A stretch of DNA of 64,000 nucleotides, from NCBI GenBank assembly GCA_019745315.1, contig JAIETH010000002.1, positions 98,306 through 162,305 of the forward strand, read 5' to 3'. Position numbers and translations under genes: made by a program. Below the pieces are notes generated by a model. That model was not told the origin of the DNA, ran no database searches, and saw nothing but the letters and a program-made list of their open reading frames with translations. Of the stretch, positions 43,856 through 63,659 are shown in pieces; position 1 is the first letter of the stretch, and every line of letters begins with the position of its first letter. The stretch is from Patescibacteria group bacterium (lineage in GTDB: Bacteria > Patescibacteriota > Minisyncoccia > Phycocordibacterales > UBA918).

Positions 43856-45253
43856 TCACTTTAAAAGAGCACGAATCTGACCAAGTTCTTCTTCGAGGAG
43901 TGTATCCCCTTTTAAATCTTTTTTAATCTTTTCGCATGAGTGGATTACTGTAGTGTGATCTCTTCCTCCCATCTTTTGTCCGATGGCTGGGTACGATATT
44001 TGGAAATCTTCTCGAAGGATATACATAATGAGTTGTCGAGGCTTCACCACCTCTTTCCGACGAGTCTTCTCATAAATACTTTCAGGTTCAATATCAAAGA
44101 AGCGTGCTATTTTTTCAACAACATCTGCTACTGCAAGAGACTTACGTGGACGAGTGCTGTTTTTTATAAGAGATTTTACTTCGTCTATCTCAAGTGCGCG
44201 TCCAGAGAGCTGAGACTGACACATGATGGTGTTAAGTGCTCCTTCGAGCTCACGAATATTTCCCTCAATTGTTTGAGCAAGGTGTTCGATAACGCTCTCG
44301 GTAAGCATTATGTTGTTTTGTGCCGCCTTTGCACGAAGTATTGCTATGCGTGACTCAAAATCAGTGCGAGGTATATCAACAATCATTCCCTGCGCAAATC
44401 GTGACTGAAGACGCTCTTCCATGTTGTGCATAAGGCGCGGATGAACATCAGATGAAAACACAATCTGCTTGTTATTGTCGTGAAGCGCATTAAATAGATG
44501 AAAGAGCTCTTCTTGAGTTTTCTCCTTATTAGAGAGAAACTGCACATCGTCCATGATGAGTGTGTCGTACTGGCGGTACTTGTCCTTAAAGTTATTGGCG
44601 GTTCCGTTTTGAAGAGAGTTCATATAATCCACAGTAAAACGCTCGCTCGTGACGTAAAAAACTTTTTTCCCTTGTTTTTTAAGGTGGTTACCAATCGCTT
44701 GGATCAAGTGTGTCTTTCCGTGACCTGTAGGTCCATATATAAACAGTGGGTTGTAGGCTATTCCAGGCTCACGAGCAACTGTCTGAGCAGCTGCATGGGC
44801 AAGTTGATTAAATGGACCAACAACAAAACTCTGAAAGGTATATTTCGGATTAAGATTGTCGCTCTTATTTATGTAGTACTCCTCAAGAGGGAGCGCCGCA
44901 TTCACTGTTTGAGGCTTTACCTTATCTATTTTCTTGTCAGTGCGTGCAACAACCGTATATTCGACATTCCGCACATGGTGTGAAAGGTCGCGCAGTGTTT
45001 TTAGTATGAGGCTATGGAATTTATCGGAAAGCCAGTCACGTACAAACACACTTGGTACACCGAGGGTTATGGTCCCATCTTCGAAAGACACTATATGTGT
45101 ATCTCGGAACCACGTTTTAAAGTTAGCAGTTGATATTGAGAGCTCAATATTGACCAACGAATTGTCCCACAGCTGTTTTACATCAAGATATTCAGTACGA
45201 AGTGCATGTATTGAGGTTTGAGAAGAAGCATTCATACAAAAAGTCTTAAGCAT
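43856..45253 (-). CDS. dnaA: Chromosomal replication initiator DnaA. Start taken at MLKTFCMNASS, which is preceded by GGAGAG.
   Basis: GPTGHGKTHL Walker A, AAA+ box VII, C-terminal DnaA-box-binding HTH (YPAIGQKMGGRDHTTVIHSCEKI). The 94 upstream codons of the listed ORF fall in the AT-rich origin spacer. Confidence 0.9.
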   Translation of the reverse strand: MLKTFCMNASSQTSIHALRTEYLDVKQLWDNSLVNIELSISTANFKTWFRDTHIVSFEDGTITLGVPSVFVRDWLSDKFHSLILKTLRDLSHHVRNVEYTVVARTDKKIDKVKPQTVNAALPLEEYYINKSDNLNPKYTFQSFVVGPFNQLAHAAAQTVAREPGIAYNPLFIYGPTGHGKTHLIQAIGNHLKKQGKKVFYVTSERFTVDYMNSLQNGTANNFKDKYRQYDTLIMDDVQFLSNKEKTQEELFHLFNALHDNNKQIVFSSDVHPRLMHNMEERLQSRFAQGMIVDIPRTDFESRIAILRAKAAQNNIMLTESVIEHLAQTIEGNIRELEGALNTIMCQSQLSGRALEIDEVKSLIKNSTRPRKSLAVADVVEKIARFFDIEPESIYEKTRRKEVVKPRQLIMYILREDFQISYPAIGQKMGGRDHTTVIHSCEKIKKDLKGDTLLEEELGQIRALLK

Positions 45254-45432
45254 TATACTCTCCACAGTCTGCATGTAAACAGCTGAGCGTAAAAAATACA
45301 AAACTAGTGTGAAATAACGATATCCCACACCCAAAATAGATGACTGTGTACAACTCTGTGTATAGCTGTATATAAAAAAGCTCGTCAAGTACGGTGGTTG
45401 AAATATGTTTGTGTATGGTGTATTGTGTGCGC

Positions 45433-45570
45433 ATGTCAAAAAGAACCTATCAGCCAAAGAAGCGCAAGCGTGCAACCACCCACGGTTTCTTGGCGCGCAC
45501 AAAAACAGCAGGAGGAAAGGCTGTGCTTCAGGCACGTCGAAGAAAGGGACGAGCTAAATTAGCTGTCTAA
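45433..45570 (+). CDS. rpmH: 50S ribosomal protein L34
   Basis: [45 protein letters not shown], 45 aa. Below the ORF-track length cutoff, so not listed there. Confidence 0.95.
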
Positions 45571-45571
45571 T

Positions 45572-45919
45572 ATGCTGAAAGCGAGCGCTCGTCTCTCTCG
45601 AGAGGAGTTTATGAAAGCTTTTAAAGGCGCACGAAGAGTGCGCTTTCCTGGTATTCAGGTTTTGTATTCCCCAGACTCGTCCTTCAAGGTTTCGGCAGTT
45701 GTTTCTAAAAAAATAGCCTCTACGGCGGTGAGGAGAAATTATATGCGTCGGTCAGTCTATGCTGCTGCACGAGACTGGTATACGAGTGCTCCACACGCTA
45801 CGGGTACATATATATTTGTCCTCCAGTCTGACGCAAAATCTATATCCATAAGCACACTTCATGATTCTGTGATGCTGGGTATAGAATCTTTCCTTCCCCC
45901 AACCACGTATTCAAGGTAG
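45572..45919 (+). CDS. rnpA: RNase P protein component
   Basis: basic 115-aa protein directly after rpmH; RNR-like motif KIASTAVRRNYMRR. Confidence 0.85.
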   Translation: MLKASARLSREEFMKAFKGARRVRFPGIQVLYSPDSSFKVSAVVSKKIASTAVRRNYMRRSVYAAARDWYTSAPHATGTYIFVLQSDAKSISISTLHDSVMLGIESFLPPTTYSR

Positions 45920-46676: not shown

Positions 46677-46706
46677 AAAAAGACCTCGCAAAGCGAGGTG
46701 TTTTTC
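46677..46706. terminator. Terminator after yidC
   Basis: aaaagacctcgc-aaag-cgaggtgttttt. Confidence 0.8.
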
Positions 46707-46729: not shown

Positions 46730-47917
46730 TTACTGAGGTATGTTATGAAGCCAAAGGCTGTCATCCTTTTTATTTTTGAAAATTGCTCGATATTCGGACA
46801 CGCGTAGGTCTAGCACATCTATCTCTTCTCGAGATTTCTGAGTCAGGTCAAGCGCCACAGAAGTCGCCCCTGTCGATGTTCCCACGGTAAAGAGTGTATC
46901 TGCGTAGGAGACAGTGCCTCTATACCAGTCAACAGGAAATGAGGTTGTTTTCGCGCTATCACTTGCCGCACACAACATGCGTATCTCTGACGCCCCACAT
47001 TTCTCTCGCAAAGTTGCGAGAGAGACAAAGTTTCCAATCCCCGTTTGTATGTTTAAAAGAAGTCCGTACGGATCACTTCCTGAGTTTTTGGTAACCAAGA
47101 GTGTATTGGCATCTATGCGGAGAGCCACAAGGTTTTTTGATTGGTCTATTTTAACGAGATTGTTTCCTGATATTCCGTACAGATAGCCCATAAATCCAAT
47201 CGCTGGTTTTGTGTAGACGTAATGTTTTTTATTCTCCCAGATATCCCACAAAACGGCTCCTTCTCCGAAAGGTAGAGAGAAGATTTGTGAAGCCGTACCA
47301 CTTTGGAGGTTTCGTGAATACCCCAAAAGACCACCCTCCGTACTCTTTCGTGTATAAAAGAGTTGTCCTTGTGCTCCAAATGCAATATTTTCTAGGCGTG
47401 GCGTTTCTTCAAGTGATATTTCAACAGATCCGCTATCTCCTGTGGCGAGGCTTCCAATGAATGTTTCTCCTTGTGTGCCATCTATATCGGTAATAATAAC
47501 GACGCGATTACCCGATGGTGACCAATATGATTCTACAACATACGGAATTGTTTGATTTGACACTCGTGTTTCTATCCCTGTTTCAAGTGAGATGTCGTAT
47601 ACATGCCCTGTACCCTTAGTCATGTAACGTACTACAAGCCCATCCGTGGTTGAGGCGATTACAGCCCCGGCTACAGGCCGTTCGGTGAGCTTGGTAAGCT
47701 CTGCTCCGATAGGTATTGTTCTGTCTTCTTCATAGTCGTCGACCTGATCTTCCAAGGCAACAGGAGTGGGCCCCGTGCTTACTGTAGTATTTTCACCAAA
47801 GATATTGTCCCGAATATCCTCAATGCTTTTTGGAGCACCATTGAGTAATAGATATATCCATACTCCCCCAAGAATGAGGATAAGAAGTACAAGGATGAGT
47901 ATAAATATTTTTTTCAT
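46730..47917 (-). CDS. Secreted protein (signal peptide), beta-rich; last gene of the T4SS-like cluster
   Basis: 395 aa, N-terminal transmembrane/signal segment MKKIFILILVLLILILGGVWIYLL. Confidence 0.5.
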   Translation of the reverse strand: MKKIFILILVLLILILGGVWIYLLLNGAPKSIEDIRDNIFGENTTVSTGPTPVALEDQVDDYEEDRTIPIGAELTKLTERPVAGAVIASTTDGLVVRYMTKGTGHVYDISLETGIETRVSNQTIPYVVESYWSPSGNRVVIITDIDGTQGETFIGSLATGDSGSVEISLEETPRLENIAFGAQGQLFYTRKSTEGGLLGYSRNLQSGTASQIFSLPFGEGAVLWDIWENKKHYVYTKPAIGFMGYLYGISGNNLVKIDQSKNLVALRIDANTLLVTKNSGSDPYGLLLNIQTGIGNFVSLATLREKCGASEIRMLCAASDSAKTTSFPVDWYRGTVSYADTLFTVGTSTGATSVALDLTQKSREEIDVLDLRVSEYRAIFKNKKDDSLWLHNIPQ

Positions 47918-47958
47918 AAAGTATTAATTAAAAGAAAGATCATGCATATAAAAAGTTT

Positions 47959-48612
47959 TTAAGGTACAAGACCTGTACATCTTCGACAAATACCTCCTGC
48001 AGCTCTACATTGCGGCACATTATTTTCCGCACAACAAAGTACTGTGTTGGTGTCGCATGTCCTACATTCAGGAGTTCCGTCTGGAAATCTTCTCCCTGTA
48101 AAGTTTAGATTGCTTCCTGTGCAACCAGCGACGTCGCTCGTGGTCGCTGTCCCCCCAGTAGTCGCTCCAGGGCTTTGTGTTGCAATCGAAACCGGAGGTG
48201 CACCACGTAACGGATCAAGTTTTATCTCTCCTGAAATAGTCTCCAAAATGAGTACCGTGGAAAGTATTAAGAGAAGCCCCGCAAGAGACGCAGTTATGGT
48301 TGCTTTTGCCTCCCCCATCCCCCCATGATTCCCAGCCGAAGAGAGGTATTTGAAACCAGCAAAGCTAATTTGGAATACTGCAGCAAGTGCACCAATGGTT
48401 ATGGCAAGTCGGTACCCAGCATTTAAGAGGTTTACGAGTCTATCCTCATCTCGTCCACCTATGTCGGTGAGTCCTGGGATACCAGCGAGAGGTTGGAATT
48501 CTTGAGCAAAGGTATGGGTTGGGGCTATATATACAGAAAGAAGGAGGATAGCGAGAATATAAAAATACAGAAAAAAGAAAAGTCCTACTGAAGCTTTTTT
48601 ATTTCTAACCAT
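47959..48612 (-). CDS. VirB2/TrbC-like pilin-family protein, paralog 1: a signal peptide, a two-transmembrane-helix pilin-like core, and a short Cys-rich C-terminal tail
   Basis: Core QEFQPLAGIPGLT...LAITIGALAAVFQISFAGFKYL...ATITASLAGLLLILSTVLILE; tail with CxxC pairs (CRTCDTNTVLCCAENNVPQCRAAGGICRRC). Confidence 0.45.
   Translation of the reverse strand: MVRNKKASVGLFFFLYFYILAILLLSVYIAPTHTFAQEFQPLAGIPGLTDIGGRDEDRLVNLLNAGYRLAITIGALAAVFQISFAGFKYLSSAGNHGGMGEAKATITASLAGLLLILSTVLILETISGEIKLDPLRGAPPVSIATQSPGATTGGTATTSDVAGCTGSNLNFTGRRFPDGTPECRTCDTNTVLCCAENNVPQCRAAGGICRRCTGLVP
48163..48531. repeat. 369-bp segment 100% identical to 49080-49448, the shared core of the two pilin-like genes
   Basis: Exact nucleotide identity checked by eye from ccccagtagtcgctccagggc... 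to ...caaaggtatgggttgg. Both flanks diverge. Confidence 0.9.
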
Positions 48613-48703
48613 AATTAGTAGTCACAAAGAAATATCTTGCGTATCGTCATGTGTATCTATGATACCACTGGTTTCTGCGTGGATAAGTATATGTACACAA
48701 ACA

Positions 48704-49564
48704 TTACTGGGTTAGATAACAGGTGCCACCTCTGGGATCATACCCCTCTCTACATTCAGTTTCTATAGTTCCGTACGAGTACAAAAGACATCCTGCTTGC
48801 CCTCCTCCGGGGGGTTGTACGAATTGATACCCGGATTCGCACTGCGCATCTCCAGAAGGTTCTGTAAGTAGTGGTACGCATCCAGAGTTACCCCACTGCA
48901 CATTGAGACTGCCATCACATCCAACTTCTATATATATAGGCTCAGGCTCACGTTCAGTGCTGGTTTCTATTGGGGGAGTCGTGTTCGGGGTGCAATTTGT
49001 TGACGATCCTTGTGATGCTCCAGGTTGACAGACTCTGCCGATCTCAGGATTTCCTGTTCCGCCTGTCAGTGCTCCACTCCCCCCAGTAGTCGCTCCAGGG
49101 CTTTGTGTTGCAATCGAAACCGGAGGTGCACCACGTAACGGATCAAGTTTTATCTCTCCTGAAATAGTCTCCAAAATGAGTACCGTGGAAAGTATTAAGA
49201 GAAGCCCCGCAAGAGACGCAGTTATGGTTGCTTTTGCCTCCCCCATCCCCCCATGATTCCCAGCCGAAGAGAGGTATTTGAAACCAGCAAAGCTAATTTG
49301 GAATACTGCAGCAAGTGCACCAATGGTTATGGCAAGTCGGTACCCAGCATTTAAGAGGTTTACGAGTCTATCCTCATCTCGTCCACCTATGTCGGTGAGT
49401 CCTGGGATACCAGCGAGAGGTTGGAATTCTTGAGCAAAGGTATGGGTTGGTGTTCCGTGCAGAGAGAAAATAATATTCCCAAGAAGGATTGCGTGGGCAA
49501 GAAAGAACAATACTTTTGATCCTCGCATACTACTTAAAGTCCACCCTAAAGGTGTTTTCTGCAT
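48704..49564 (-). CDS. VirB2/TrbC-like pilin-family protein, paralog 2: a different signal peptide, an identical core, and a longer Cys-rich C-terminal domain
   Basis: 286 aa; C-terminal 130 aa has 8 Cys (VCQPG...NCTPN...GCDGS...GCVPL...CESGY...CLLYS...CREGY...CYLTQ). Confidence 0.45.
   Translation of the reverse strand: MQKTPLGWTLSSMRGSKVLFFLAHAILLGNIIFSLHGTPTHTFAQEFQPLAGIPGLTDIGGRDEDRLVNLLNAGYRLAITIGALAAVFQISFAGFKYLSSAGNHGGMGEAKATITASLAGLLLILSTVLILETISGEIKLDPLRGAPPVSIATQSPGATTGGSGALTGGTGNPEIGRVCQPGASQGSSTNCTPNTTPPIETSTEREPEPIYIEVGCDGSLNVQWGNSGCVPLLTEPSGDAQCESGYQFVQPPGGGQAGCLLYSYGTIETECREGYDPRGGTCYLTQ
49080..49448. repeat. Second copy of the 369-bp identical pilin-core segment
   Basis: see 48163-48531. 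Confidence 0.9.
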
Positions 49565-50504
49565 ACTGAGAAAGCACTGCGAGATTGCGAAGAGAGAAAC
49601 CGATGGTCGATACTCCTCCAGATCCTGATTTCTGAAGTGTGATTACTTGAGGATCACTCGTTGTATTATTCACACGCCCACCGTCTATTGTCCAACCATA
49701 TTCTGCGTTGTTGTATACAGTCGAGTCTATTGAATACGGCTGCGCACGGAGAGTCACTTCGTTTGTTGTTTGATAGTAAGAATCTTGTATTGCATTTCTA
49801 GAGAGTCCTGTAAGTGGACTGTAGGTATAAAATTGTAACGAAGGCTCCTCGGTCTCAATATAAAATGTCTTTTCATAGGTAGCTGATCCGTCGCGAGATG
49901 TTGCTGACAGAAGTACTAACGGGCTTCCGAATATTGGCAAAACCAGATCAAGAACAGGTCGCCCGCCATTCTCAATTATTTTATCGTCTACATTCCAACT
50001 ATAAAGTACGTCAGAGGGAGGAACTGGGGTGCCATTTGCATAGAACATCCGCGGAGCTGCGGTAATGCGAGCACGTGTTCCAATACTCGGAGTTGCTCTT
50101 CCTTGGTAAAAATAAGGAGCCATACTGGTGCCCTCTGTAATAATGTCTATTTCTTGAGGAACTACTATAGTGGAGATCTTCCCTCCTCCGCGAGAAACTT
50201 CTATTTTCATAGGTTCACCGAAGGCCGGAGCTACAAGCACAATAGCCATCTGATTTTTTTTATCAGGTTGCAGTACGCCGTTTATATACCAGGAAATATC
50301 GCCGCTGCCCAAAGTACCACTGTAATCTCCTAGGCGAGCAGTGAAGTTTGCCCCAGCTGTCACATTTAAAGGAGACAGTTCAATTGCTGCTGCTTGTCCG
50401 CCAAGGCTAGTTGTTTGTGCTGAAGCTTGATTCCCCCCAAGTATCAAAAATGCACAAAAAATAAGACCTAGAAAAATAGAATGCGTAGTGTTAGATGAAA
50501 TCAT
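49530..50504 (-). CDS. Secreted hypothetical protein of the T4SS-like cluster
   Basis: 324 aa, signal peptide (IFLGLIFCAFLILGGNQASA); overlaps neighbouring genes by 4 and 35 nt. Confidence 0.5.
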   Translation of the reverse strand: MISSNTTHSIFLGLIFCAFLILGGNQASAQTTSLGGQAAAIELSPLNVTAGANFTARLGDYSGTLGSGDISWYINGVLQPDKKNQMAIVLVAPAFGEPMKIEVSRGGGKISTIVVPQEIDIITEGTSMAPYFYQGRATPSIGTRARITAAPRMFYANGTPVPPSDVLYSWNVDDKIIENGGRPVLDLVLPIFGSPLVLLSATSRDGSATYEKTFYIETEEPSLQFYTYSPLTGLSRNAIQDSYYQTTNEVTLRAQPYSIDSTVYNNAEYGWTIDGGRVNNTTSDPQVITLQKSGSGGVSTIGFSLRNLAVLSQYAENTFRVDFK

Positions 50505-50935
50505 GCGTTATTTAAAGATGCTCTGCGGGCAACAATTTCAGATCGTCGTATACGTTGCTGACGTCTCATTTCTTGCTGAGCTTCTTCTAGTCTAGCATTT
50601 TGTTGTGCTCTCTCCTTGTCTTCAAGGCGAGAAGTGTGAATGACTCGCCATGTCCACCACGTAAGAGAAGGCATAAATTGCCCTGCAAGCGGTGTAAATT
50701 CAGATATAAAAACCACAAAAATGCTTTTAGTAGTAAAAGGTGTTACGTTGCTTATCATAAAGATAAAGCTATAGACAACGAGTATAAAAATTGTAAGGGC
50801 AAAGCTGAGCGCAATGGCAACTATCGAAAATACAAGGGTAAAAAAAAGAAATCCAAGTAGTACTTGAATTCCGTCACAAATTATAGCGAACAACAGTAAT
50901 CCAAATCGTGTTGTGTCTGAAATGCGGTGTTCCAC
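50501..50935 (-). CDS. Small polytopic membrane protein of the T4SS-like cluster
   Basis: 144 aa, 3 transmembrane segments, basic coiled C-terminus. Confidence 0.45.
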   Translation of the reverse strand: MEHRISDTTRFGLLLFAIICDGIQVLLGFLFFTLVFSIVAIALSFALTIFILVVYSFIFMISNVTPFTTKSIFVVFISEFTPLAGQFMPSLTWWTWRVIHTSRLEDKERAQQNARLEEAQQEMRRQQRIRRSEIVARRASLNNA

Positions 50936-50941
50936 AAAATA

Positions 50942-52756
50942 CTATTGAGTAGCGTTTAATTCCTCGCGGGCTTTTTTGATCTGCAAAAGTTGTGATGGAT
51001 CAGATGTTATGATCTGGTCTTCAGTATAGGACGCTATGATTTTAATAGCGACATGTTTAAGTCCCGCAAAGAAAATTCCTTCCCCTACTCCCGACTCGAG
51101 AAGAAGGAATTTTTCTTCGTCGGTGAGGTTAAATGCTTTTTGGAGACTATCAATCGTTGTTGGAGATTGCTTCATTAAGAGCTGTATGGAAGAGTTTGTG
51201 AGCATTGGAACTCCATATGGAGAGTTAAGAAAGTCGTTTACATCTTGAGTGATGGTTGCAAGTCCCAAATAGTACTTACGGCCACGTTTCGCAATACCAA
51301 AAAGGAATGACGCAGTATCTTCTGACTTCATCATCCACCACGCTTCATCTATCACAAGAAGTCGCTTCTTAAGTGTGCGGCGTACTGCGCTCCAGATATG
51401 GTGCGTAATCATGTACATAGCAATGGTTTTCAATTCCTCCTCCATGTCGCGAAGTGAAAACACGATAAAGTGCTCATTAATATCAACATTTGTTGGACGA
51501 TTCATGAAGCCTTCCCATGTACCTCGTGTGTATTTAGAGAGGCGCTGTACCAACGACTCGCTTCCCTCCATGCCAGAAAGTATCATTTCAAGATCTGAAA
51601 GAAGTGGTGGCTCCATGCCACTAAAGTCACTGTGCTGGGTTATGTCCTTAAGGGCATATGTCTCAGTGATAGCCCTATCGATGATTGCGTCCTCGTCAGG
51701 AGTGAGGCCGGAAAGCATAAGTCTAAAGAGACCCACAAGATTTATGATATGAGAGCGTAACACCTCCTCTGGTGTTTCGTCTGCAAGAAGTTCAGGCAGG
51801 TCAAAGGGGTTGATGTGGTGAGGTGACGAAAGTGAGATATTGAAGAAGCGCCCCCCTGTCGCTTCTGCGAGGTATTCGTATTCATGCTCAGGGTCTATGA
51901 CGATCACTTCCGTACCAAACATAAGCGAGCGAAGGATTTCGAGCTTTGCGGCGTACGACTTACCTGATCCAGACGTTGCAAATGTTACTGAGTTGTAGTT
52001 TTCAAGAGAGAATCTATCAAAGAGTACGAGAGAAGAGTTGTGTCTATTGATACCGTAGAGAATCCCTGTATCAGCGGTAAGGTCAAATGAGGTAAAGGGG
52101 AAAAAGCTTGAAAGAGGCTCCGAGTTGAACTTCGAGTTCACAGAAAGCTCGTCGTTTCCTATTGGTATAGACGAGCGAAACCCTTCTTCTTGTTGAAAGA
52201 GAGCTGGTTTAAGGTAGATCAGGCGTGAGTCAAGAATTGATCGAACATCAGACTCCGTCTTGTCCAACTCTTCTTCGTTCATTCCGTAGATGGTGATATA
52301 GAGACCTACATCAAAAAGCCTCTCTTCAGCTTGTTGGAGTTTATCGCGGAGAGCTTCAAGGTTTTGATACGCAGCTTCGAGCTGCGGATCTCGCACAAAC
52401 CCCTTCTCTTCCCTCGTGCTCATCTGGCTTTGAACCTCAGCAACCTTTTTTCTGAAGCTCTTAAGGACATCATTTGTATCCATTGGGTGCACAAAAATGG
52501 ATACATCAAAAACTTTTTCCAAGTTAAGTATTGGTTCAAGCCATCCCTCACTCAGATAGCGAGGATATGCAACAACAAAAAAAGATCGAGCAAGGCGGCC
52601 GCTGACATTGATCTGACGAGGTGTTACCCCTATCGCCGAGGGGGCTATAACATCCTTAAGGTCAAGCGAGCTGGCATCATAAATCTCCTGAGGGAGCGCT
52701 CCTTCAGCGTCTTGTCCTTTTTTCTTTTGTATAAAGTCAAATAATCCCATGCTCAC
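50942..52756 (-). CDS. VirB4/TrbE/CagE-family conjugal-transfer-type ATPase, C-terminal (ATPase) portion. It is separated from its N-terminal domain by a single in-frame TAA.
   Basis: Walker A TSGSGKSY, Walker B LLVIDEAW, VirB4-typical RKYYLGLATITQ; the listed start is a GTG. Confidence 0.8.
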   Translation of the reverse strand: MSMGLFDFIQKKKGQDAEGALPQEIYDASSLDLKDVIAPSAIGVTPRQINVSGRLARSFFVVAYPRYLSEGWLEPILNLEKVFDVSIFVHPMDTNDVLKSFRKKVAEVQSQMSTREEKGFVRDPQLEAAYQNLEALRDKLQQAEERLFDVGLYITIYGMNEEELDKTESDVRSILDSRLIYLKPALFQQEEGFRSSIPIGNDELSVNSKFNSEPLSSFFPFTSFDLTADTGILYGINRHNSSLVLFDRFSLENYNSVTFATSGSGKSYAAKLEILRSLMFGTEVIVIDPEHEYEYLAEATGGRFFNISLSSPHHINPFDLPELLADETPEEVLRSHIINLVGLFRLMLSGLTPDEDAIIDRAITETYALKDITQHSDFSGMEPPLLSDLEMILSGMEGSESLVQRLSKYTRGTWEGFMNRPTNVDINEHFIVFSLRDMEEELKTIAMYMITHHIWSAVRRTLKKRLLVIDEAWWMMKSEDTASFLFGIAKRGRKYYLGLATITQDVNDFLNSPYGVPMLTNSSIQLLMKQSPTTIDSLQKAFNLTDEEKFLLLESGVGEGIFFAGLKHVAIKIIASYTEDQIITSDPSQLLQIKKAREELNATQ

Positions 52757-52762
52757 TGTTTG

Positions 52763-53386
52763 TTATTGTGGCGGCAGTGCCTTCTTCCCTTCGTTAGGAT
52801 TAAATATGTGATAAAAGAGGTCAACAACTTCATTTGTTCCAAGGGTGACTGTTCGTACTCCAACGCGCGCAAGTCCCTGCTCCACCACTGCGATGCGTTG
52901 TTCGAGCTGAGAACGATCCTCCTCAAATGCATCGTCAGGCAAGACATTCTTTTTTTTGGAATTTCCAAAGAGTGACTTCAATCCTTTCGACACATCAACT
53001 TTTGCGGGAACATACGAAACAATGACAAAAAAGCTCTTTGTCATAATATCAGTATCATGAGCAAATGATCGAATAAAACCGATGTATTCTCGCAACTGTA
53101 CCTTCATGAGATCGTTCTTTTGTCCGGCTTCGCGCGAAGCAAGGAGTTCGAGATAGGGATTGATATCAAGCTCTCGTGATTGTACGTAGAATTGTACTGA
53201 AAAATCGAGGGTGTTGAGGAAGTTTTGAAATTGACTGAGTATCGCCTGTTGCTCATCACTTGATTTAAGCGCAAAGTTAATTGAAGAAGCCATAAGAACA
53301 GCACGCAGGCTCCCATCCTTAAGAACCACGACCCCGTCACGGATCTCCTCAAGTGGTACAAATGATTGGGTTGGGTCAGTCGCCAT
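52763..53386 (-). CDS. VirB4-family N-terminal domain, encoded as a separate ORF
   Basis: SFVPLEEIRDGVVVLKDGSLRAVLMASSINFALKSSDEQQAI is the characteristic VirB4/TraC N-terminus. It ends with TAA at 52763-52765, in the same frame as the downstream ATPase ORF. Confidence 0.7.
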   Translation of the reverse strand: MATDPTQSFVPLEEIRDGVVVLKDGSLRAVLMASSINFALKSSDEQQAILSQFQNFLNTLDFSVQFYVQSRELDINPYLELLASREAGQKNDLMKVQLREYIGFIRSFAHDTDIMTKSFFVIVSYVPAKVDVSKGLKSLFGNSKKKNVLPDDAFEEDRSQLEQRIAVVEQGLARVGVRTVTLGTNEVVDLFYHIFNPNEGKKALPPQ

Positions 53387-53389
53387 ATA

Positions 53390-53800
53390 CTATCGTTTGT
53401 TTTGTAGGGCATTAATTTCAAGCTTACGCGCCATAGATGCAAGGCTGCTTGAGCTCGGAGGAACATAGCTTTGTGTGGCTGCGCCCTCTTTCTTCACTAT
53501 CTTTTTACTCTCTTTTCTCCACAGGTACAGTTTTGAGTGCATGAGATATCCAACAAATGATTCGAGGGTATTCACAAAGGGGCGCTCATTGTATCTATAG
53601 AATGCGAGCGCAACGGCGAGTGCCGCTATAGGTGTTCCGAATATAATGACAAATATAAATGGCAAAAAAGTGTAGAGAATAAAGAGTGAGCCCGCTCCTC
53701 CCACAAGATAAATAAATTGCTTCCACGTAAAGGGGCCAAAAATTTTATCTTCAATCTCGATAAATTGAGGGACTTCAAAACGCATACACGTATTATACAT
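53390..53800 (-). CDS. PrgI/TcpE-like small membrane protein (VirB3 analogue of Gram-positive-type T4SS)
   Basis: EVPQFIEIEDKIFGPFTWKQFIYLVGGAG followed by two transmembrane segments. Confidence 0.55.
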   Translation of the reverse strand: MYNTCMRFEVPQFIEIEDKIFGPFTWKQFIYLVGGAGSLFILYTFLPFIFVIIFGTPIAALAVALAFYRYNERPFVNTLESFVGYLMHSKLYLWRKESKKIVKKEGAATQSYVPPSSSSLASMARKLEINALQNKR

Positions 53801-53832
53801 GTGACGAGCGTATAGTTACGCACAGTGCTGTA

Positions 53833-54360
53833 TTACTCAGGCTTTTCTCTGTAGGGATCCTCAGTGTACTGAGGCATATTCGTCAGAGGTTTTGTGTATG
53901 ACGGAGGTTGGTATTGGGGAGTTGCTAAAGGTGAGGCTGATACGGGAGTGGCTTCTTCGATCAAGCGTTTTTGAAACACAGGCGTTGATTTTGCTACAGG
54001 CATGGTCTCCTTTGGAAGACTTGCTTCATGCACCTTTCTTTCATTCCATGCCTGCTTCATCTCTTCTCGCGCTTCCACAAAAATCGTTGTATCAATATCG
54101 CGTGCGATACTTGTAGCAACTGAGCCTGGGATGAGTAATTCTTCCATGATACGTTCCTCAAAACGATTACTGTCTTCAAAAGTGAGAAGTGTTAAGGTAA
54201 CCATTTCTCGAAGAATGCCAGCTTTGTCTTCAGGTAAGCGATGTTTTTCTGCAACAATCTGCACCGAAGAAGCAAGAGAGGGACGCATGATCAGGTTCTG
54301 CAGTTTTTCCGGCAGGCTCTCGAAACGTTCTCGTAATAGTGTAATAAATTGAGGATCCAT
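53833..54360 (-). CDS. Hypothetical protein of the T4SS-like cluster
   Basis: 175 aa, helical, no transmembrane segment. Confidence 0.4.
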   Translation of the reverse strand: MDPQFITLLRERFESLPEKLQNLIMRPSLASSVQIVAEKHRLPEDKAGILREMVTLTLLTFEDSNRFEERIMEELLIPGSVATSIARDIDTTIFVEAREEMKQAWNERKVHEASLPKETMPVAKSTPVFQKRLIEEATPVSASPLATPQYQPPSYTKPLTNMPQYTEDPYREKPE

Positions 54361-54380
54361 ATACTTTCTATGTCTTTAAT

Positions 54381-56288
54381 TTAATGATGGTCTCCACCCC
54401 CGCCACCATGTCCACCACCTCCGTGATCATCTCCGTGACCGCCGCCAGCATCAGGCTTGTGATCATCTTTTGGTTTTGATTCTCCACCCCCACCTCCTTT
54501 TTCCTTAGCTTTCTTTTCGGGTGGTTTATATTCTTCGCCCTTTTTAGCACTCTTTTTTTGCTTCTCAATATCATCTTTAATTGCTTTTTCAATAGCTCCC
54601 CCTTCTTTTTTATCATGCCCCGCTACGAGTCGACTGAACCAACTTCTGTCTTTTACTATCTGTGCGTATGAAGCTTGATTGGCGGTTTCTTTCTTTGCGA
54701 TTTCAGCCCGCTTGTCTGAAGAGCTTTCTTTATAATATTCCATCTCCATCTTTGCCTTCTCTGCCGCTTCTTTGTTTTTCTCTCTATTTGCTTCTTTGAG
54801 CTTTTCCTCTGCGGCATGAAGTGCGTCTGTGTCTTTTTTGAGAGCAGCTTTTTCAGCTTCTATTTCAGGAGTATCCTTCACATTAAGTGATCGAGCATAA
54901 TCCGCTTCGTCTTGTTTTTTACCTTTCAGCCAAGATTCGTAGTTTTCTTTTGAAGCTTTGCCTACGTCAAGATCCATTCCTTTTGTAAATTTACCGACGA
55001 GCCCATTAGCGCGAGCATCAAAAGAGCTTTTCTGTACCGATGTAATTCCTCCTGCGCCTACCCGAGCAAGTCCTCGGGTTATAGCCCAACTATTTTTGTT
55101 TGCTTGAACGCTCTTCAGGCCAGCAAGTCTTTTTTGAACAGCCTCACTATTGGCTGCTCGACCGATGGTCATTCTGCCCATATATCCGGTTGCTCCAAGA
55201 CTCGCTCCTACAGCTTTTCCTGCCCACCCCATCATTTTTGTGGTTTGAGACGCTCCTGCTGTGCTCATCTGTTTTGCCATTTTTGTTGTGCCTACTATCA
55301 GCACCATTGCAACAATGTAAAACATGAGAGTAGCGAGCGCAGCACTTTTGTCTCCCGGCAAGAAAAGTCCTCGTAGATTACCACTTTGTCCGTAGGGGGT
55401 GCCTTGAAGTATTAGCAAAGAAATATAGAGACCAAAAAGGTATATAGGGGCAAGAAATGCTTGGCTTGTGAGAGTAGACCACCACTGTTTTTTGTATTTA
55501 CCAAGCATAGGAACTTCACTTGGTAGAAATGCAATTGGAGACGTGATCATAAGTATAATAAGCATTGCAAATCGAGTGATGAGAAGAAAGGCCCCAAGTC
55601 CAAATGCTATTGCAAGAAGAAACATGAGGATACTACCTCCTACGGTGTATACAACTGCGTATGCGATACCTCCGCCATTTGGCTGCATAAATTGACTGAG
55701 CGCAGCTCTCTGCCCCGCACTATCTCCGCCTGCTTGAATAGACATGATGCCCATGCGAGCCATAAAAGCATCACTTATACCTCGCCCTTCTGCGCGACTC
55801 GCTGCATCAGATACCATTTTTTTATATACCGAGTCAGCAACAATATTAGAGACATCAATAATTGCTTTGGTAAAGAAGAGGCTAAAGTTTACGAGGAGCG
55901 CTGCGACAATAACTGAGGCGAGTCCTTTTTTAAGCCCCCCCATGCTGCCATGTACAATGGTCATAATACCTATGTATATAAGAGAGAAAACAAAAGTAAG
56001 GTTAACGATATCTCTAAACACAGACCATAATTGATCGATAGAAGATCCAAAGCCTTGCGTGCGAACCATTCCACCCATACCGATCACAAGTTGTGTTACG
56101 GCAAGGTTAAGGAGCCACCCCATAACACCCAAGAACCAGCCAAAAAGACTCAAGATTCCTACAAGAAGCCACATCACAACATCACCGACTGCGTCAGTGA
56201 TTCCCCAGAATGCAGAAGCTTCGTGGGGAATACCAAAAAGTCCAATGAGTACAAGTGCTGCTGTGCTGTAAAAAGTAACGCGTTTCAT
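54381..56288 (-). CDS. VirB6/TrbL-like polytopic membrane protein with a long Lys/Glu-rich and terminal Gly/His-rich cytoplasmic tail
   Basis: 635 aa; at least 7 transmembrane segments in the first 350 aa; tail ...GGGGGESKPKDDHKPDAGGGHGDDHGGGGHGGGGGDHH. Confidence 0.45.
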   Translation of the reverse strand: MKRVTFYSTAALVLIGLFGIPHEASAFWGITDAVGDVVMWLLVGILSLFGWFLGVMGWLLNLAVTQLVIGMGGMVRTQGFGSSIDQLWSVFRDIVNLTFVFSLIYIGIMTIVHGSMGGLKKGLASVIVAALLVNFSLFFTKAIIDVSNIVADSVYKKMVSDAASRAEGRGISDAFMARMGIMSIQAGGDSAGQRAALSQFMQPNGGGIAYAVVYTVGGSILMFLLAIAFGLGAFLLITRFAMLIILMITSPIAFLPSEVPMLGKYKKQWWSTLTSQAFLAPIYLFGLYISLLILQGTPYGQSGNLRGLFLPGDKSAALATLMFYIVAMVLIVGTTKMAKQMSTAGASQTTKMMGWAGKAVGASLGATGYMGRMTIGRAANSEAVQKRLAGLKSVQANKNSWAITRGLARVGAGGITSVQKSSFDARANGLVGKFTKGMDLDVGKASKENYESWLKGKKQDEADYARSLNVKDTPEIEAEKAALKKDTDALHAAEEKLKEANREKNKEAAEKAKMEMEYYKESSSDKRAEIAKKETANQASYAQIVKDRSWFSRLVAGHDKKEGGAIEKAIKDDIEKQKKSAKKGEEYKPPEKKAKEKGGGGGESKPKDDHKPDAGGGHGDDHGGGGHGGGGGDHH

Positions 56289-56294
56289 GTGTCT

Positions 56295-57872
56295 TTAGTC
56301 GCCACCTCCTCCACCATCATTATTGCCACGTGATCTTCGTGGGCACGGTTGAATCTCTGACGCCAATGCTTCAATGGTGGGTATTTTTTGATCCACCTCA
56401 AATTTGATGCCTGAATTTGTAATTGAAGTGTGTAGTGTTCCGGAAGACAGTATGGTTCCAAATTTCGTATACGACGAAAGCTTTTCTTCTTCAGATCCTT
56501 CATCTACCTTCTTTTGAAGCACCACAAGTTCCTCTACCGTTTTTTCTGATGCGACAATAGCAGAAAGAGCGATATCTTTTTCATCTTGGGCTTTTTTAAT
56601 CACCATATCATTTATGGTACACACTATAACTTCTTCTCCTTCAAGAATATCTTCTTCTGATGCAGCCGCTTCATCTTTTGCTTTTGTGATAATTGCGTCA
56701 GCAGCATTAACAATGCGTCGCTGTATTGCTTGGTATGTTTTTTCATCACTTATTGCAACAGCTATGGATCCTGCACCTGAGTAACCAACTGTGCCGCCGC
56801 TGCTGTACCCAGGATTACAGCCTTCAGTATTGATCTGTTCTATGTAGGTAAGTGAGTTACACAAATCGCTATTGCCCGCGCTTCCATCAAATCGCGAGGA
56901 GCTGTAGGTGTTGCTACTCCCCGTCAAAAGTCCTCGCGCCGCGGTAAGTCCTTGTTTAAGTGCTTGTCCAAGCAATGCTCCTATGATTTCGTTAATTTCG
57001 TCAGCCTCCAGAAGGGCTCGTTCTGTACCTTGGACAGTAAAGGAGAGTGACTGTGCGATAGTATCTCCCGGGGTTACGGTACGACATTTTTTAGGAGTTG
57101 CTTCGATCGGTGCGCCACTTTGTGTAGGTCCTTGTTGTGCGCCGCCAGTACATACTTCCCTACTTAAGAAGCCTCTTCCCCAATTTGCTTGGGTTTGGGC
57201 TCTTCCTTGGCTGCTAGAAATACTCGCTTGAAGTTGGATCGAACCAAAGACCCCCGACCCCATGGTTGAATTGATTGGACTTGTATTGATATCAAGCCAT
57301 GCTGGCCAGCCTCCAGCCATAAAGTTTCCTTGGATAAAGCGATCAACGTTTCCGACTGCGCCGCTCAATGTACACTGGACAGGTTTTCTGTTTCGTGAAT
57401 TTTGATATGCAAGATTGAGGCTAATACGAAGGTTGATAGGGCTACAAAGAAAGGCAAGATCGCTTCCATAAAGCACCTCTCCTGCTGCTTCGTCTGCAAT
57501 ATTGAGCATAAACGCCTGTGGATCCGTCATAAACATCGGACTTCCCTGGAATCCGCTATTGATCCAGCTTACTGTGCTTCGCGCCATCTCGGTTGCCACT
57601 CTTTTGGCAAGGAAGAATGCGACGCCATCAAGTGTCCACTCTTTTAAGTTCATTGCACTGAGCATTGAGGCGTTTATGCTTGTGCCGGCTGCGGTAATTG
57701 TATCTTGAAGCCATGACCCCCAGCTTTGAGGTGTGGCGTCAGCGACAACCTCTACAGGTATGGCGTGTGTTGTTTGAGGATTAATCGTTAATACTGAAGA
57801 GGCGAAAAGTATTGCCAAAAAGAAAGAGGCGAAAGTCTTGTTCTTTAAAAATAGAATATTTGAAAATTTCAT
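56295..57872 (-). CDS. Large secreted hypothetical protein of the T4SS-like cluster
   Basis: 525 aa with a signal peptide; 4-nt overlap with the upstream gene. Confidence 0.45.
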   Translation of the reverse strand: MKFSNILFLKNKTFASFFLAILFASSVLTINPQTTHAIPVEVVADATPQSWGSWLQDTITAAGTSINASMLSAMNLKEWTLDGVAFFLAKRVATEMARSTVSWINSGFQGSPMFMTDPQAFMLNIADEAAGEVLYGSDLAFLCSPINLRISLNLAYQNSRNRKPVQCTLSGAVGNVDRFIQGNFMAGGWPAWLDINTSPINSTMGSGVFGSIQLQASISSSQGRAQTQANWGRGFLSREVCTGGAQQGPTQSGAPIEATPKKCRTVTPGDTIAQSLSFTVQGTERALLEADEINEIIGALLGQALKQGLTAARGLLTGSSNTYSSSRFDGSAGNSDLCNSLTYIEQINTEGCNPGYSSGGTVGYSGAGSIAVAISDEKTYQAIQRRIVNAADAIITKAKDEAAASEEDILEGEEVIVCTINDMVIKKAQDEKDIALSAIVASEKTVEELVVLQKKVDEGSEEEKLSSYTKFGTILSSGTLHTSITNSGIKFEVDQKIPTIEALASEIQPCPRRSRGNNDGGGGGD

Positions 57873-58771
57873 ATATTCTCTAGGGAATTTTTTAAGGCAA
57901 TCAAGAAATACCCGGGCTCCAAAAGATCATAGGTAATTCCTTGAGAAGTAAGGTTGTTTGTAACTCCAATAAAAGCTTGTCCGAGCATCTCTGCCTCAGG
58001 AAGGTATTGCTGAAATCTCATGAGCGCAGGTAGTGGATCTGTTGGCATGTTACGCATTGCAAGTATGGTTGCATAGATAACCTGAAGTTGATTCAACAGG
58101 GCTAGATGTTCTTGGACAATGCTTTTGGGTACAACTACAGCGCGCACATCTTTGATAGTTCCTTCGTATGTTGCAATGATCGGATCTAGATCCTTTAGTT
58201 CTTCGTCATTTTCTGATTCAACTGCACGTTTAAATATTAGAAGCTCTCCTTCGTTTTTTAGTGGATGGTTAATAAATGCTGTGGCGAGACTATTGCCGTA
58301 GGCTCGTAGGGTCTCAGCATCTATTGCATTTGTCACAACAATATCTCTCTCAGTAAGGAGTCTGTCATTAACTACCATGTTCATGTCAACTAGGGAGCGT
58401 TCAAGCATTTTCTGCTTCTCTTCATCGGTCATTGATGTTTCTCCGGTCTTTTGGAGAAATTCACCAAAAAAGCGTTGTGCAAAGCGACTTGTGACAGTAT
58501 CAGGTACGGAAACAGGCTCAGCAGCTTTCTTTTTTGTTTCTGGAGAAGTATCTTTTACGAGAGGATTGGTGCCCTGGAGCTCCTCTTCCCAATCGAGTAC
58601 GCCATCGCCATCGGTATCTTTTACTCGTTGATAGTCGCGTGTTTCAGTTGAAGTGATCACTACCGCAGCGTTTTCCGTGCTGTCGCTCACTTGAGGACGT
58701 AAAAAGAGCGCGGTACCCATAAGTCCCACTGCGAGAAATGCAGCCCCTCCAATTTTCTTGTTCACACGCAT
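57869..58771 (-). CDS. Membrane-anchored hypothetical protein, first gene of the T4SS-like cluster (possible VirB8-like topology)
   Basis: 300 aa, a single N-terminal transmembrane segment, periplasmic domain. Confidence 0.4.
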   Translation of the reverse strand: MRVNKKIGGAAFLAVGLMGTALFLRPQVSDSTENAAVVITSTETRDYQRVKDTDGDGVLDWEEELQGTNPLVKDTSPETKKKAAEPVSVPDTVTSRFAQRFFGEFLQKTGETSMTDEEKQKMLERSLVDMNMVVNDRLLTERDIVVTNAIDAETLRAYGNSLATAFINHPLKNEGELLIFKRAVESENDEELKDLDPIIATYEGTIKDVRAVVVPKSIVQEHLALLNQLQVIYATILAMRNMPTDPLPALMRFQQYLPEAEMLGQAFIGVTNNLTSQGITYDLLEPGYFLIALKNSLENI

Positions 58772-59619: not shown

Positions 59620-59760
59620 GGGTTTTAGTATAGCTCGCGCACTGTTTCGGTGAAAGAGTCTTTAGGGAGCCATCAGCGAAGTGGTATTGATATTTAAAAA
59701 CCAGACCTACCCCAACCTTTTTAAATATCAATACCACTTCGCTCCTTTCAAGAGAATTAT

Positions 59761-62008: not shown

Positions 62009-63082
62009 TTGTATGGCGGCGCGTCCGTAATAACACGACTTATTCAACCCTACTTTAAAAATCTAATGCTGCGCGCAAGGGCGATGGCTGAAGTGACATA
62101 TACGTACAAACGAACGTCTCTCACGCGATCTTTTATCGTTTCAGCGTTGCTCCTCCTGTCTCCTCTCTTTGTGCATGCGGGTGTTTTTGATGCGCTCCTT
62201 GGTTTTGTTGCAGAGGCAGACTCTGCTCCTGTTGAGACTGCTGATAATCCTCAAACGATCTCTCTTTTGCATGGAGGTATGGGAACCGACGGTGCTCTAG
62301 GAGGGGGAGATATTCTGGTAAGTGAAGACGGTACCCTTGTGCCTGGTGGTCCAGGAGGTGGCGAGGTCGGAGATTACTCAGGAGAAATTAGTGAATATGT
62401 GGTGCGTGAAGCTGACTCGCTGTCTCAAATTGCCGATATGTTCGGCGTTTCCGTGAACACTATTCTGTGGGCAAATGAAATTAAGGATTCAAATACTATA
62501 CAGCCAGGTGATACCTTGATTATCCTCCCTGTCTCAGGTGTTCGCCATGTGGTGAAGGCGGGTGATACGCTCAAAGCGATTGCGGCTAAGTACCAGGGAG
62601 ATATTGATGATATTGTTGCGTATAACTTACTTACAGATACAACGAACCTTGTTCCTGGAACCACGATTGTCGTTCCGGGGGGAGAAGTTAAGTCTGAGAC
62701 TCCAAAGAAGGCTGCAGGAAAAGCAGCCGGTGGTGGCGGAAAATACTTTATACACCCACTTCCAGGATCAGTTCGTACACAAGGTATTCACGGGTATAAC
62801 GGTGTTGACCTCGGTGCTTCTGCTGGAACTCCAATACGTGCTGCTGCTGACGGAACCGTTATCCTCTCTCGATCAGGAGGATGGAATGGAGGCTATGGAA
62901 ACTATGTTGTGATTAAGCATGGAAATGGTACCCAGACACTCTATGCGCATAACAGTAGTAATGCTGTTGCTACAGGAGAAACTGTTACCCAGGGTCAAGT
63001 TATTGGCTATGTAGGTTCGACGGGCCGCTCAACAGGTATGCATCTACACTTTGAAGTTCGAGGAGCAACCAATCCTTTTTAG
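62009..63082 (+). CDS. Secreted peptidoglycan hydrolase with two LysM domains and a C-terminal M23 metallopeptidase domain
   Basis: LysM (YVVREADSLSQIADMFGV, HVVKAGDTLKAIAAKYQG); M23 HxxxD/HxH (GIHGYNGVDL ... GRSTGMHLHFEV). Confidence 0.85.
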   Translation: MYGGASVITRLIQPYFKNLMLRARAMAEVTYTYKRTSLTRSFIVSALLLLSPLFVHAGVFDALLGFVAEADSAPVETADNPQTISLLHGGMGTDGALGGGDILVSEDGTLVPGGPGGGEVGDYSGEISEYVVREADSLSQIADMFGVSVNTILWANEIKDSNTIQPGDTLIILPVSGVRHVVKAGDTLKAIAAKYQGDIDDIVAYNLLTDTTNLVPGTTIVVPGGEVKSETPKKAAGKAAGGGGKYFIHPLPGSVRTQGIHGYNGVDLGASAGTPIRAAADGTVILSRSGGWNGGYGNYVVIKHGNGTQTLYAHNSSNAVATGETVTQGQVIGYVGSTGRSTGMHLHFEVRGATNPF

Positions 63083-63161: not shown

Positions 63162-63659
63162 TTACGGGCATCGCGCGACGCCACCACTTATAAGTGGTGC
63201 CCCCGTTGAACCAAAGTTGATAGACACTTCCTTTGCAGCGCCTCCCGCATCCACGCACCAGCCAGTATTTGATCCTGTTGGACTATGCAGAGGAAGTGCA
63301 AGAGCCCATGAGTCAGCATATACCGCACAAAAAGTGCGACCACTTGGTATGGTGCTTTGAATACTATTCATCATCACTCCAATGCCATCACTCAAAGCGT
63401 CATCAAATACTGTATTTAGGAGCAAATTACATTCACCAATGGTGTCTTGATGACTCGCGCTTCCAGTATTTGTATACGAACCACGGTTGGCAAAAAAGAG
63501 CGCGGCTTGTTTGCGTGCCTGCTCCATTTGAGACTTAATTGCAGCATCACGAGACTTAGTTCGTGCCGTACTGAGGCTTGTAAGTACGATGCTTGCAAGG
63601 AGGCCTATGATCGCAATCACTACAAGAAGTTCAATAAGAGTAAAGCCGGACTTTTTCAT
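63162..63659 (-). CDS. Type IV prepilin (N-terminal cleavage/methylation domain); a PilA-like major pilin candidate
   Basis: [26 protein letters not shown] is the class III signal sequence with G-1/F+1/E+5; Cys pair near the C-terminus. Confidence 0.85.

Follow-up and report, generated by a model that had tools for sequence, protein, structure and literature searches.

The window analysed here, a stretch of 64,000 nucleotides from contig JAIETH010000002.1 of a Patescibacteria group bacterium of Paceibacteria type with an ultra-small genome, carries on its minus strand, at positions 46730–58771, a cluster of twelve intact, co-directional open reading frames (ORFs) that encodes a type IV secretion system (T4SS). 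We take this to be the Paceibacteria-class version of the chromosomal T4SS that is nearly universal in Patescibacteria (the candidate phyla radiation, CPR) and to act as a contact-dependent, non-conjugative machine, a joint reading to which we assign a probability of about 0.8. The identity of the system is close to certain; the contact-dependent, non-conjugative role, taken by itself, is probable. The module encodes a monoderm-type inner-membrane translocon (TrsD plus VirB4, PrgI/VirB3 and an extended VirB6), VirB2-like pilins and six lineage-specific envelope or accessory proteins. An earlier reading of this DNA, made from the sequence alone (the sequence-only reading), had already picked out a co-directional T4SS-like cluster at these coordinates, and the cluster is real. 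The same reading held that the system as a whole may be undescribed, which is not the case: its content, its position and its likely non-conjugative role are set out in PMC12102498, the patescibacterial systems have since been reviewed (PMC12857230) and the essentiality of a homologue has been reported (PMC10633639). The kind of system is thus known and the window adds no new kind; what it does add is small, namely a pilin core with a hypervariable tail, a tandem pilin duplication and accessory proteins of beta-propeller and Ig-like type. The twelve genes are, in gene order:

57869–58771, minus strand: g300, first gene; bitopic membrane protein with an N-terminal transmembrane (TM) segment (residues 6–24), a TSP3-type motif and then a domain with no assigned fold
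56295–57872, minus strand: g525; secreted protein (signal peptide, 8 Cys) comprising a conserved N-terminal domain and a C-terminal helical bundle
54381–56288, minus strand: extended VirB6/TrbL-like polytopic membrane protein, 635 aa, at least six TM segments; assigned from orthologues and topology
53833–54360, minus strand: g175; small soluble protein with neither TM segment nor signal peptide, between the VirB6 and PrgI genes
53390–53800, minus strand: PrgI family protein (VirB3 equivalent), a membrane hairpin; Pfam PrgI
52763–53386, minus strand: TrsD-like protein, 207 aa, corresponding to the VirB4 N-terminal domain as a gene of its own, 6 nt upstream of virB4
50942–52756, minus strand: VirB4-type ATPase, 604 aa, with the middle and C-terminal P-loop domains; NCBIfam conju_CD1110, Pfam P-loop_TraG
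50501–50935, minus strand: g144; small membrane protein, hydrophobic in its N-terminal half and ending in a charged tail rich in R, Q and E
49530–50504, minus strand: g324; secreted protein with Ig-like beta-sandwich domains, assigned from the orthologue profile and Pfam matches of orthologues
48704–49564, minus strand: pilin paralogue B; two-helix core of T4SS_pilin (VirB2-like) type, preceded by a signal peptide and followed by a unique, Cys-rich C-terminal tail; PF18895, E 0.002
47959–48612, minus strand: pilin paralogue A; aligns with paralogue B, with the same core but another signal peptide and Cys-rich tail; PF18895, E 0.002
46730–47917, minus strand: g395, last gene; N-terminal TM anchor and predicted extracytoplasmic beta-propeller, from AlphaFold2 and Foldseek

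Organisation and conservation of the cluster

The genes are tightly packed, with 4-nt overlaps and gaps of 3–41 nt, and the sequence-only reading was right about this except in setting 50 nt as the upper limit, the two pilin genes being separated by 91 nt. Its count of twelve genes holds only if the TrsD-like and VirB4 genes are counted separately. At the other end of the packed array from g300, 59 nt lie between the cluster and yidC; the distance of about 1.2 kb previously given for yidC is closer to that of dnaA, which is some 1.2–1.4 kb away. Nor is the DNA low in GC, as had been stated: the content is a moderate ~44% and is even along the cluster at ~0.43–0.46. Nine of the twelve products have a predicted signal peptide or TM anchor.

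Both flanks are made up of chromosomal genes, with the housekeeping genes yidC, rnpA, rpmH, dnaA and dnaN on one side and ksgA, uvrD/pcrA, a LysM-M23 peptidase gene and a type IV pilus-type pilin gene on the other. A scan of species-representative genomes identified 80 related loci (81 in counts made with iterative profiles), 45 of which have full 10-kb flanks; their contig titles include Kaiser-, Nomura-, Taylor-, Zambryski-, Campbell- and Wolfebacteria. In all 45 full-flank loci the order is the same: uvrD-ksgA-g300-g525-VirB6-(g175)-PrgI-TrsD-VirB4-(g144)-g324-(pilin)-g395, then yidC-rnpA and dnaA-dnaN. Each of the twelve genes recurs in 46–80 of the 81 loci and nearly always on the VirB4 strand. 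Because order and flanks are identical in 45/45 cases, we regard the cluster as a vertically inherited core locus rather than a mobile element, and VirB4 identity of at least 70% across the 80 loci likewise implies long vertical inheritance. The placement in the core chromosome next to the origin, proposed in the sequence-only reading, is thereby borne out.

That reading also saw no coupling protein, relaxase or integrase, and we find none either: neither a VirD4-type IV coupling protein (T4CP) nor a relaxase nor an integrase is present in the cluster, its flanks or the window ORFs scanned (all those of at least 500 aa and about a dozen of 230–370 aa). The remaining scanned ORFs encode PolA, a Mur ligase, PBP1, RuvA, RuvB, RuvX, PilB, PilM and similar proteins. 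Within the window, the cluster edges show no tRNA gene, repeat boundary, flanking direct repeats or shift in GC, and no VirB9 or VirB10 domain was found.

The translocon core

The VirB4 assignment passes the profile check that had been proposed for it, scoring 372 bits against NCBIfam conju_CD1110 (cutoff 325) over profile positions 182–733 and 88 bits against Pfam P-loop_TraG. Walker A (ATSGSGKS) and Walker B (LLVIDEAW) motifs are present, and the Walker residues are invariant across the aligned relatives. Among solved structures, the ATPase is best matched by the C-terminal domain of VirB4 from the monoderm Thermoanaerobacter (PDB 4AG5, E 1.3e-39), the diderm TrwK reaching only E 1e-5. A database search scored 8000 proteins at E ≤ 1e-10; among the 120 best matches listed, one ('Patescibacteria group bacterium') is 100% identical and the other 119 are 73–93% identical, and all the named sources are Patescibacteria (Parcubacteria/Paceibacteria-type assemblies). 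The nearest VirB4 proteins from outside the Patescibacteria in the plasmid collection PLSDB show no more than 36% identity. From similarity, rather than from a tree, we infer that the protein belongs with the Patescibacteria clade.

The sequence-only reading treated VirB4 as a single ORF (50942–53386), whereas there are two, parted by an in-frame TAA at 52763–52765. The upstream ORF matches NCBIfam TrsD (E 3.6e-7), the N-terminus of VirB4_plasma (E 3.7e-9), positions 2–102 of conju_CD1110 and positions 18–174 of Pfam TraC_F_IV. Separate TrsD ORFs of 206–226 aa are found in 79 of the 80 related loci and their frame relative to virB4 varies, with 41, 20 and 18 loci falling into the three frames. 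The split is therefore a conserved gene arrangement; sequencing error, a pseudogene and programmed readthrough are ruled out by the same two observations. Together, the TrsD-like and ATPase genes make up one VirB4.

In known systems, a PrgI-type membrane hairpin anchors VirB4. The PrgI assignment made in the sequence-only reading is confirmed, the protein scoring 43.3 bits against PF12666 (cutoff 27), and PrgI was recovered in 78/81 loci. The VirB6-like protein has a long hydrophilic, K/E-rich C-terminal region followed by a Gly/His tail. A profile built from its orthologues yielded coiled-coil noise only when searched against PDB sequences. The Gly/His-rich tail itself (GGGHGDDHGGGGHGGGGGDHH, codons 54381–54500) is present in one of 56 orthologues examined and is lineage-specific; tails of other orthologues are K/E/D-rich or Gly-rich and of low complexity.

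Pilin paralogues with identical cores and divergent tails

Each of the two pilin paralogues has a signal peptide and two hydrophobic helices, with 8 Cys in paralogue B. The true start of paralogue B is probably an internal ATG at 49528, giving a product of 274 aa; an independent assembly also calls a 274-aa product. The two genes share an identical block of sequence:

48150–48522, unstranded: pilin-core block, copy 1; 373 nt, 100% identical to copy 2
49078–49450, unstranded: pilin-core block, copy 2; 373 nt, spanning the mature pilin core

The core of the tandem pair is thus identical, while the signal peptides and Cys-rich tails differ. An independently assembled, 99.3%-identical sister strain (L084, positions 2033–2405 and 2961–3333) carries the same pair, and for this reason the duplication is not an assembly artefact. 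In the sister strain the two cores are 97% identical to each other over a 300-nt reference stretch. The level of core identity (100% here, 97% in the sister strain) suggests either a recent duplication or ongoing gene conversion alongside divergent tails. Possession of two pilin genes is rare, being seen in 4 of 70 loci; the other 66 have a single gene.

The separation into constant and variable parts extends to the relatives. When 74 pilin-like ORFs from related loci were compared, their cores could be aligned in 2631 of 2701 pairs. A C-terminal tail of 50–431 aa is carried by 64 of the 74, and these tails are mostly unrelated to one another (20 of 2016 pairs align), with most having an even number of Cys, between 2 and 12. 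In two relatives the pilin core is fused to a C-terminal YkuD L,D-transpeptidase domain (L062, 7688–8890; L078, 12860–13852), with YkuD scores of 50.5 and 46.8 bits (cutoff 23.4) and both fused domains above their Pfam thresholds; in a third (L077), the tail gives a weak match to Peptidase_M15_4. Both tails in the window, like those of most relatives, lack a recognisable enzyme domain. At the sequence level these comparisons show the Paceibacteria pilin as a conserved core joined to a hypervariable, Cys-rich C-terminal domain. This is a small addition to a known system; a term search of PMC12102498 returned no mention of pilin tails or of YkuD fusions.

Accessory proteins

Searches of Pfam and NCBIfam returned no match for g395, g324 (directly), g144, g175 or g525. 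The AlphaFold2 model of g395 (predicted local distance difference test, pLDDT, 88.3; predicted template-modelling score, pTM, 0.79) has propellers as its top Foldseek matches in the PDB—oligogalacturonate lyase, acylaminoacyl peptidase and TolB, E ~1e-8—and the protein is predicted to be a membrane-anchored beta-propeller of TolB/acylaminoacyl-peptidase type. It is found in 70/81 loci, and two distant homologues carry PG_binding_1. The g324 protein, found in 76/81 loci, apparently contains three repeats that share a W-x-x-(N/D)G motif. Its orthologue profile matches the Ig domains of phage T4 Hoc (E 3.1e-6), and 9 of 30 orthologues match BiPBP_C and 4 of 30 Ig_3.

Relatives of g525 were found in Patescibacteria only. 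Its Cys-containing N-terminal domain is well conserved, with the motifs W-INSGF-GSP-F and LCSPF, and is not confidently modelled by AlphaFold, in which the C-terminal helical bundle is confident; fold searches were uninformative, and the orthologue profile gave coiled-coil noise only against PDB sequences. The TSP3-type calcium-binding motif of g300 (D-x-D-x-DG-x-x-DW-x-E) scores 23 bits against Pfam TSP3_bac, below the cutoff of 25, and is the only part of the g300 profile to find a match in the PDB; the gene is present in 51/81 loci, always on the VirB4 strand. Of the two small proteins, g175 recurs in 69/81 loci (same strand) and g144 in 46/81, with 44 of the 45 g144 matches outside the window on the VirB4 strand. 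Once a Paceibacteria co-culture becomes manipulable, this conserved gene list (g395, g324, g525, g300, g175 and g144) could help to direct structural and genetic studies.

One further gene lies outside the cluster:

62009–63082, plus strand: two LysM domains and an M23 peptidase (Pfam Peptidase_M23 112 bits, LysM 87 bits), 3.2 kb upstream of the cluster and on the opposite strand

The gene occupies the same relative position in 12 related loci. CD419-type VirB1 homologues with M23/LysM domains associate with virB4 in Paceibacteria (PMC12102498), and consistent with this the LysM-M23 peptidase is a possible VirB1-type cell-wall hydrolase partner of the cluster, although the association is uncertain.

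Relationship to known systems

The most direct comparison is with the patescibacterial systems surveyed by Quinonero-Coronel et al. (2025, PMC12102498), who found VirB4 in 2,417 of 3,035 Patescibacteria genomes, forming a clade nested within the monoderm MPF-FATA class. TrsD, PrgI/VirB3, VirB6 and VirB2-like pilins lie near virB4 in these genomes, a likely non-conjugative role was proposed, and in Paceibacteria virB4 is located close to dnaA, dnaN, rnpA and ksgA (PMC12102498). The window cluster resembles these systems: its VirB4 is closest to those of Patescibacteria, it is adjoined by TrsD, PrgI, VirB6-like (assigned through orthologues) and VirB2-like pilin genes, it has no relaxase or T4CP nearby and it sits in the same dnaA/dnaN/rnpA/ksgA context. 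There is no essential difference, the window having two pilin genes with an identical core; neither the six accessory proteins nor the variable pilin tails are discussed in PMC12102498. A 2025 review counts the patescibacterial systems as newcomers to the T4SS superfamily (PMC12857230).

The homologous system of Saccharibacteria, pilins included, is essential for epibiotic growth as judged by transposon sequencing (Tn-seq), and its lack of a relaxase and coupling protein was pointed out (Wang et al. 2023, PMC10633639). In Southlakia epibionticum (SEML1_0005/0006–0019) it comprises VirB4, a TrsD-like protein, PrgI, VirB6-like proteins and several T4SS_pilin genes, with no recognisable relaxase or coupling protein, and from its low locus numbers it too is origin-proximal. 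The Saccharibacteria set has features of its own, namely six short arrayed pilins, a triple lysozyme-like protein, a PEGA/Ig exported protein and an NTF2-like protein. In their place, the window cluster has long-tailed pilins, the g395 beta-propeller, Ig-like g324, g525, g300, g175 and g144, with no lysozyme-like or NTF2-like protein detected.

With monoderm MPF-FATA conjugative T4SSs (CTn/CD1110, pGO1 Trs and pCF10 Prg) the cluster shares a CD1110-family VirB4, the presence of TrsD and PrgI, and the lack of VirB7, VirB9 and VirB10. It differs from them in having no T4CP, relaxase or mobile-element context among the ORFs scanned (oriT was not specifically searched for), in possessing pilin genes, and in having no recognised VirB1 hydrolase or VirB8-like protein within the cluster. 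The closest plasmid VirB4 proteins in PLSDB are those of Embleya sp. NBC_00896 plasmid unnamed2 (36% identity) and an 898-kb plasmid of Pontibacillus sp. ALD_SL1 (33%), and both share with the window the module order T4SS_pilin - VirB6/TrbL - PrgI - (TrsD) - VirB4. Their pilins score above the Pfam threshold (72.4 and 47.4 bits, respectively), are short (145–176 aa) and lack long tails. In the actinobacterial Embleya cluster (273859–283723), a T4SS_pilin ORF that is not annotated (72 bits) precedes VirB6, and a T4CP and a relaxase, together with an NlpC/P60 protein, lie directly downstream of VirB4, which makes the cluster conjugative in type. The TrsD profile is matched as well by its 349-aa 'PrgI family protein' ORF, suggesting a PrgI–TrsD fusion. 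The Pontibacillus cluster (351801–361354), on a Firmicutes megaplasmid, has two T4SS_pilin genes, VirB6/TrbL, PrgI, TrsD, a CD1110-type VirB4 and, downstream, a DD-metalloendopeptidase of 1050 aa. The annotation shows neither a T4CP nor a relaxase within 9 kb, the flanks hold chemotaxis and flagellar genes, and the cluster may be another non-conjugative pilin-bearing monoderm T4SS. The existence of a pilin-bearing module in monoderm elements weakens the idea that Patescibacteria had to borrow their pilin from diderm systems.

Function of the cluster

The sequence-only reading had put forward two alternatives, the uptake of DNA and a contact-dependent exchange with host cells, which are the same speculations as those found in the literature. 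Uptake is the less probable of these as we see it. Here the cluster would be a DNA- or nucleotide-uptake machine resembling the ComB system of Helicobacter, importing host DNA as a source of nucleotides for an organism unable to make them. The Helicobacter pylori ComB system works without a relaxase or VirD4 and has VirB2-, VirB3-, VirB4- and VirB6-like parts; no relaxase or VirD4 is in view at the window cluster either. ComB is, however, a diderm system with VirB7–10 homologues, the window cluster is a monoderm MPF-FATA derivative, and there is no sequence affinity between the two beyond a generic VirB4. An uptake role was proposed for the Saccharibacteria T4SS on the grounds that growth there requires the T4SS but not competence (PMC11665869). 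Against this, Southlakia needs type IV pili and ComEC for natural transformation but survives the deletion of comEC (PMC12857230), so that the essential role of the T4SS is not exercised via ComEC; no cluster product is predicted to bind or process DNA. On balance, uptake seems unlikely. We consider it a little less likely still that the cluster is a device for cell-envelope biogenesis, in which VirB4 and VirB6 insert or export pilin-core proteins whose C-terminal domains remodel the organism's own or the host's peptidoglycan, no conduit being formed. The YkuD fusions and the weak Peptidase_M15_4 match would fit such a device, as would the peptidoglycan-binding domain of distant g395 homologues, the LysM-M23 peptidase conserved nearby and the long tails of most pilins, which are atypical for a polymerising VirB2. 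Most tails, both of those in the window included, nevertheless have no recognisable enzyme domain, and the Saccharibacteria pilins are short and arrayed like true pilins.

Two further explanations fare much worse. One is an ordinary integrative conjugative element that has its relaxase, coupling protein and integrase immediately beyond the window. The family in which VirB4 falls is named for conjugative elements (CD1110), the closest plasmid relative has its T4CP and relaxase adjoining VirB4, and on one side the window extends only ~5 kb past the cluster, all of which would suit this. Such an element is very improbable given the identical housekeeping flanks on both sides in every full-length locus, the clean cluster edges and the conservation of VirB4, and given that relaxases occur in just 103 of the 3,035 Patescibacteria genomes and near virB4 in 15 (PMC12102498). 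The other is that the cluster is the degenerating and now functionless relic of an ancient conjugative system, to which the missing relaxase and T4CP and the apparently 'split' VirB4 might have pointed. But the split is an arrangement of two genes that has been conserved, none of the twelve ORFs is disrupted, the Walker motifs do not vary, VirB4 is 73–100% identical to its closest listed relatives and the homologous system is essential in Southlakia. This explanation is refuted by the level of conservation and we give it practically no weight.

A number of observations also count against the contact-dependent T4SS that we favour. To date no pilus has been observed for the system, and a 2024 perspective called the role of the T4SS "completely unknown", the speculations being effector delivery and the uptake of host molecules or DNA. 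VirD4/T4CP homologues are encoded in most Patescibacteria genomes, mostly far from virB4 (PMC12102498), and a coupling protein may thus lie elsewhere in this genome. Profile matches to the membrane and pilus components are incomplete. The sequence-only reading proposed VirB6/TrbL-like and VirB2/TrbC-like proteins, and these assignments hold through orthologues rather than directly: the 635-aa VirB6-like protein itself has no Pfam or NCBIfam match, although 6 of 31 orthologues match TrbL (PF04610, best E 2e-8), and both pilins score 18.6 bits against T4SS_pilin (PF18895), below the threshold of 26.6, although 27 of 30 orthologues match this family (best E 4.7e-10) and 3 match TrbC/VirB2. Hidden Markov model searches of the twelve products found neither a VirB1-like hydrolase nor a VirB8-like (NTF2) protein, structures having been predicted for two of the six accessory proteins. 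Finally, large enzyme domains of YkuD type on pilin cores are hard to fit into a canonical VirB2 helical pilus.

Proposed mechanism

The steps by which a contact-dependent, non-conjugative T4SS of this composition might work are drawn from established T4SS biology; the analysis itself contributes gene content, conservation, predicted topology and two predicted folds. PrgI and TrsD would dock a VirB4 hexamer onto the VirB6 channel, and VirB4 would pull pilin-like subunits out of the membrane for polymerisation or surface display on a walled cell that has no outer membrane, thereby exposing the hypervariable, disulfide-rich C-terminal domains of the pilins. The Ig-like, beta-propeller and helical secreted proteins may form or stabilise the wall-crossing part. 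At contact with the host cell, the machine would move proteins or other macromolecules or maintain attachment; it would not conjugate DNA.

A more tentative extension, which we think has a minor though real chance of being correct, is that the Paceibacteria 'pilin' is not a plain VirB2 filament subunit: the two-helix core would be the part by which the T4SS displays a hypervariable disulfide-rich domain, in some lineages a peptidoglycan-active enzyme such as YkuD. If so, the variable domain would set which host cell wall is recognised or remodelled, the tandem duplication in the window would be a snapshot of tail diversification, and the conserved beta-propeller protein, together with the Ig-like and helical secreted ones, would be hitherto unrecognised components of the surface organelle of a monoderm T4SS. 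Few machines are thought to underlie the obligate epibiotic lifestyle of this very large bacterial radiation; the patescibacterial T4SS is among them and is essential in the single species tested. The window provides a clean Paceibacteria example.

Other features of the window

The 3′ end of the cluster is marked by a hairpin:

46683–46699, unstranded: terminator-like bidirectional hairpin; 7-bp stem, 5 of its pairs GC, and a T-run on either strand

Lying between the convergent yidC and the last gene, g395, this hairpin is likely to be the 3′ end of the operon. A scan for sigma-70 promoters was uninformative, with fewer sites found than in shuffled sequence. The uvrD-ksgA intergenic region contains a perfect 26-nt inverted repeat with a 17-nt spacer (59675–59743), which could terminate uvrD or, lying upstream of ksgA and the T4SS genes, act as a regulatory site; it is followed by a promoter-like site at 59654–59627.

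Type IV pilus genes are scattered elsewhere in the window, and encode a PilB-type ATPase (35372–37165), PilM (10445–11545) and a pilin with an N-terminal methylation motif (63162–63659). The genome therefore has a type IV pilus system in addition to the T4SS, in agreement with the sequence-only reading. Three window ORFs have no Pfam match at E ≤ 1e-4: 16581–18767 (minus strand, 728 aa), 23853–24953 (plus strand, 366 aa) and 12668–13684 (plus strand, 338 aa). Below the cutoff of the ORF list, rpmH (L34, 45 aa) is located at ~45440–45575 on the plus strand, just upstream of rnpA. At 559 aa, the neighbouring dnaA ORF (43856–45535, minus strand) probably reaches too far at its 5′ end; the product called in an independent annotation has 472 aa.

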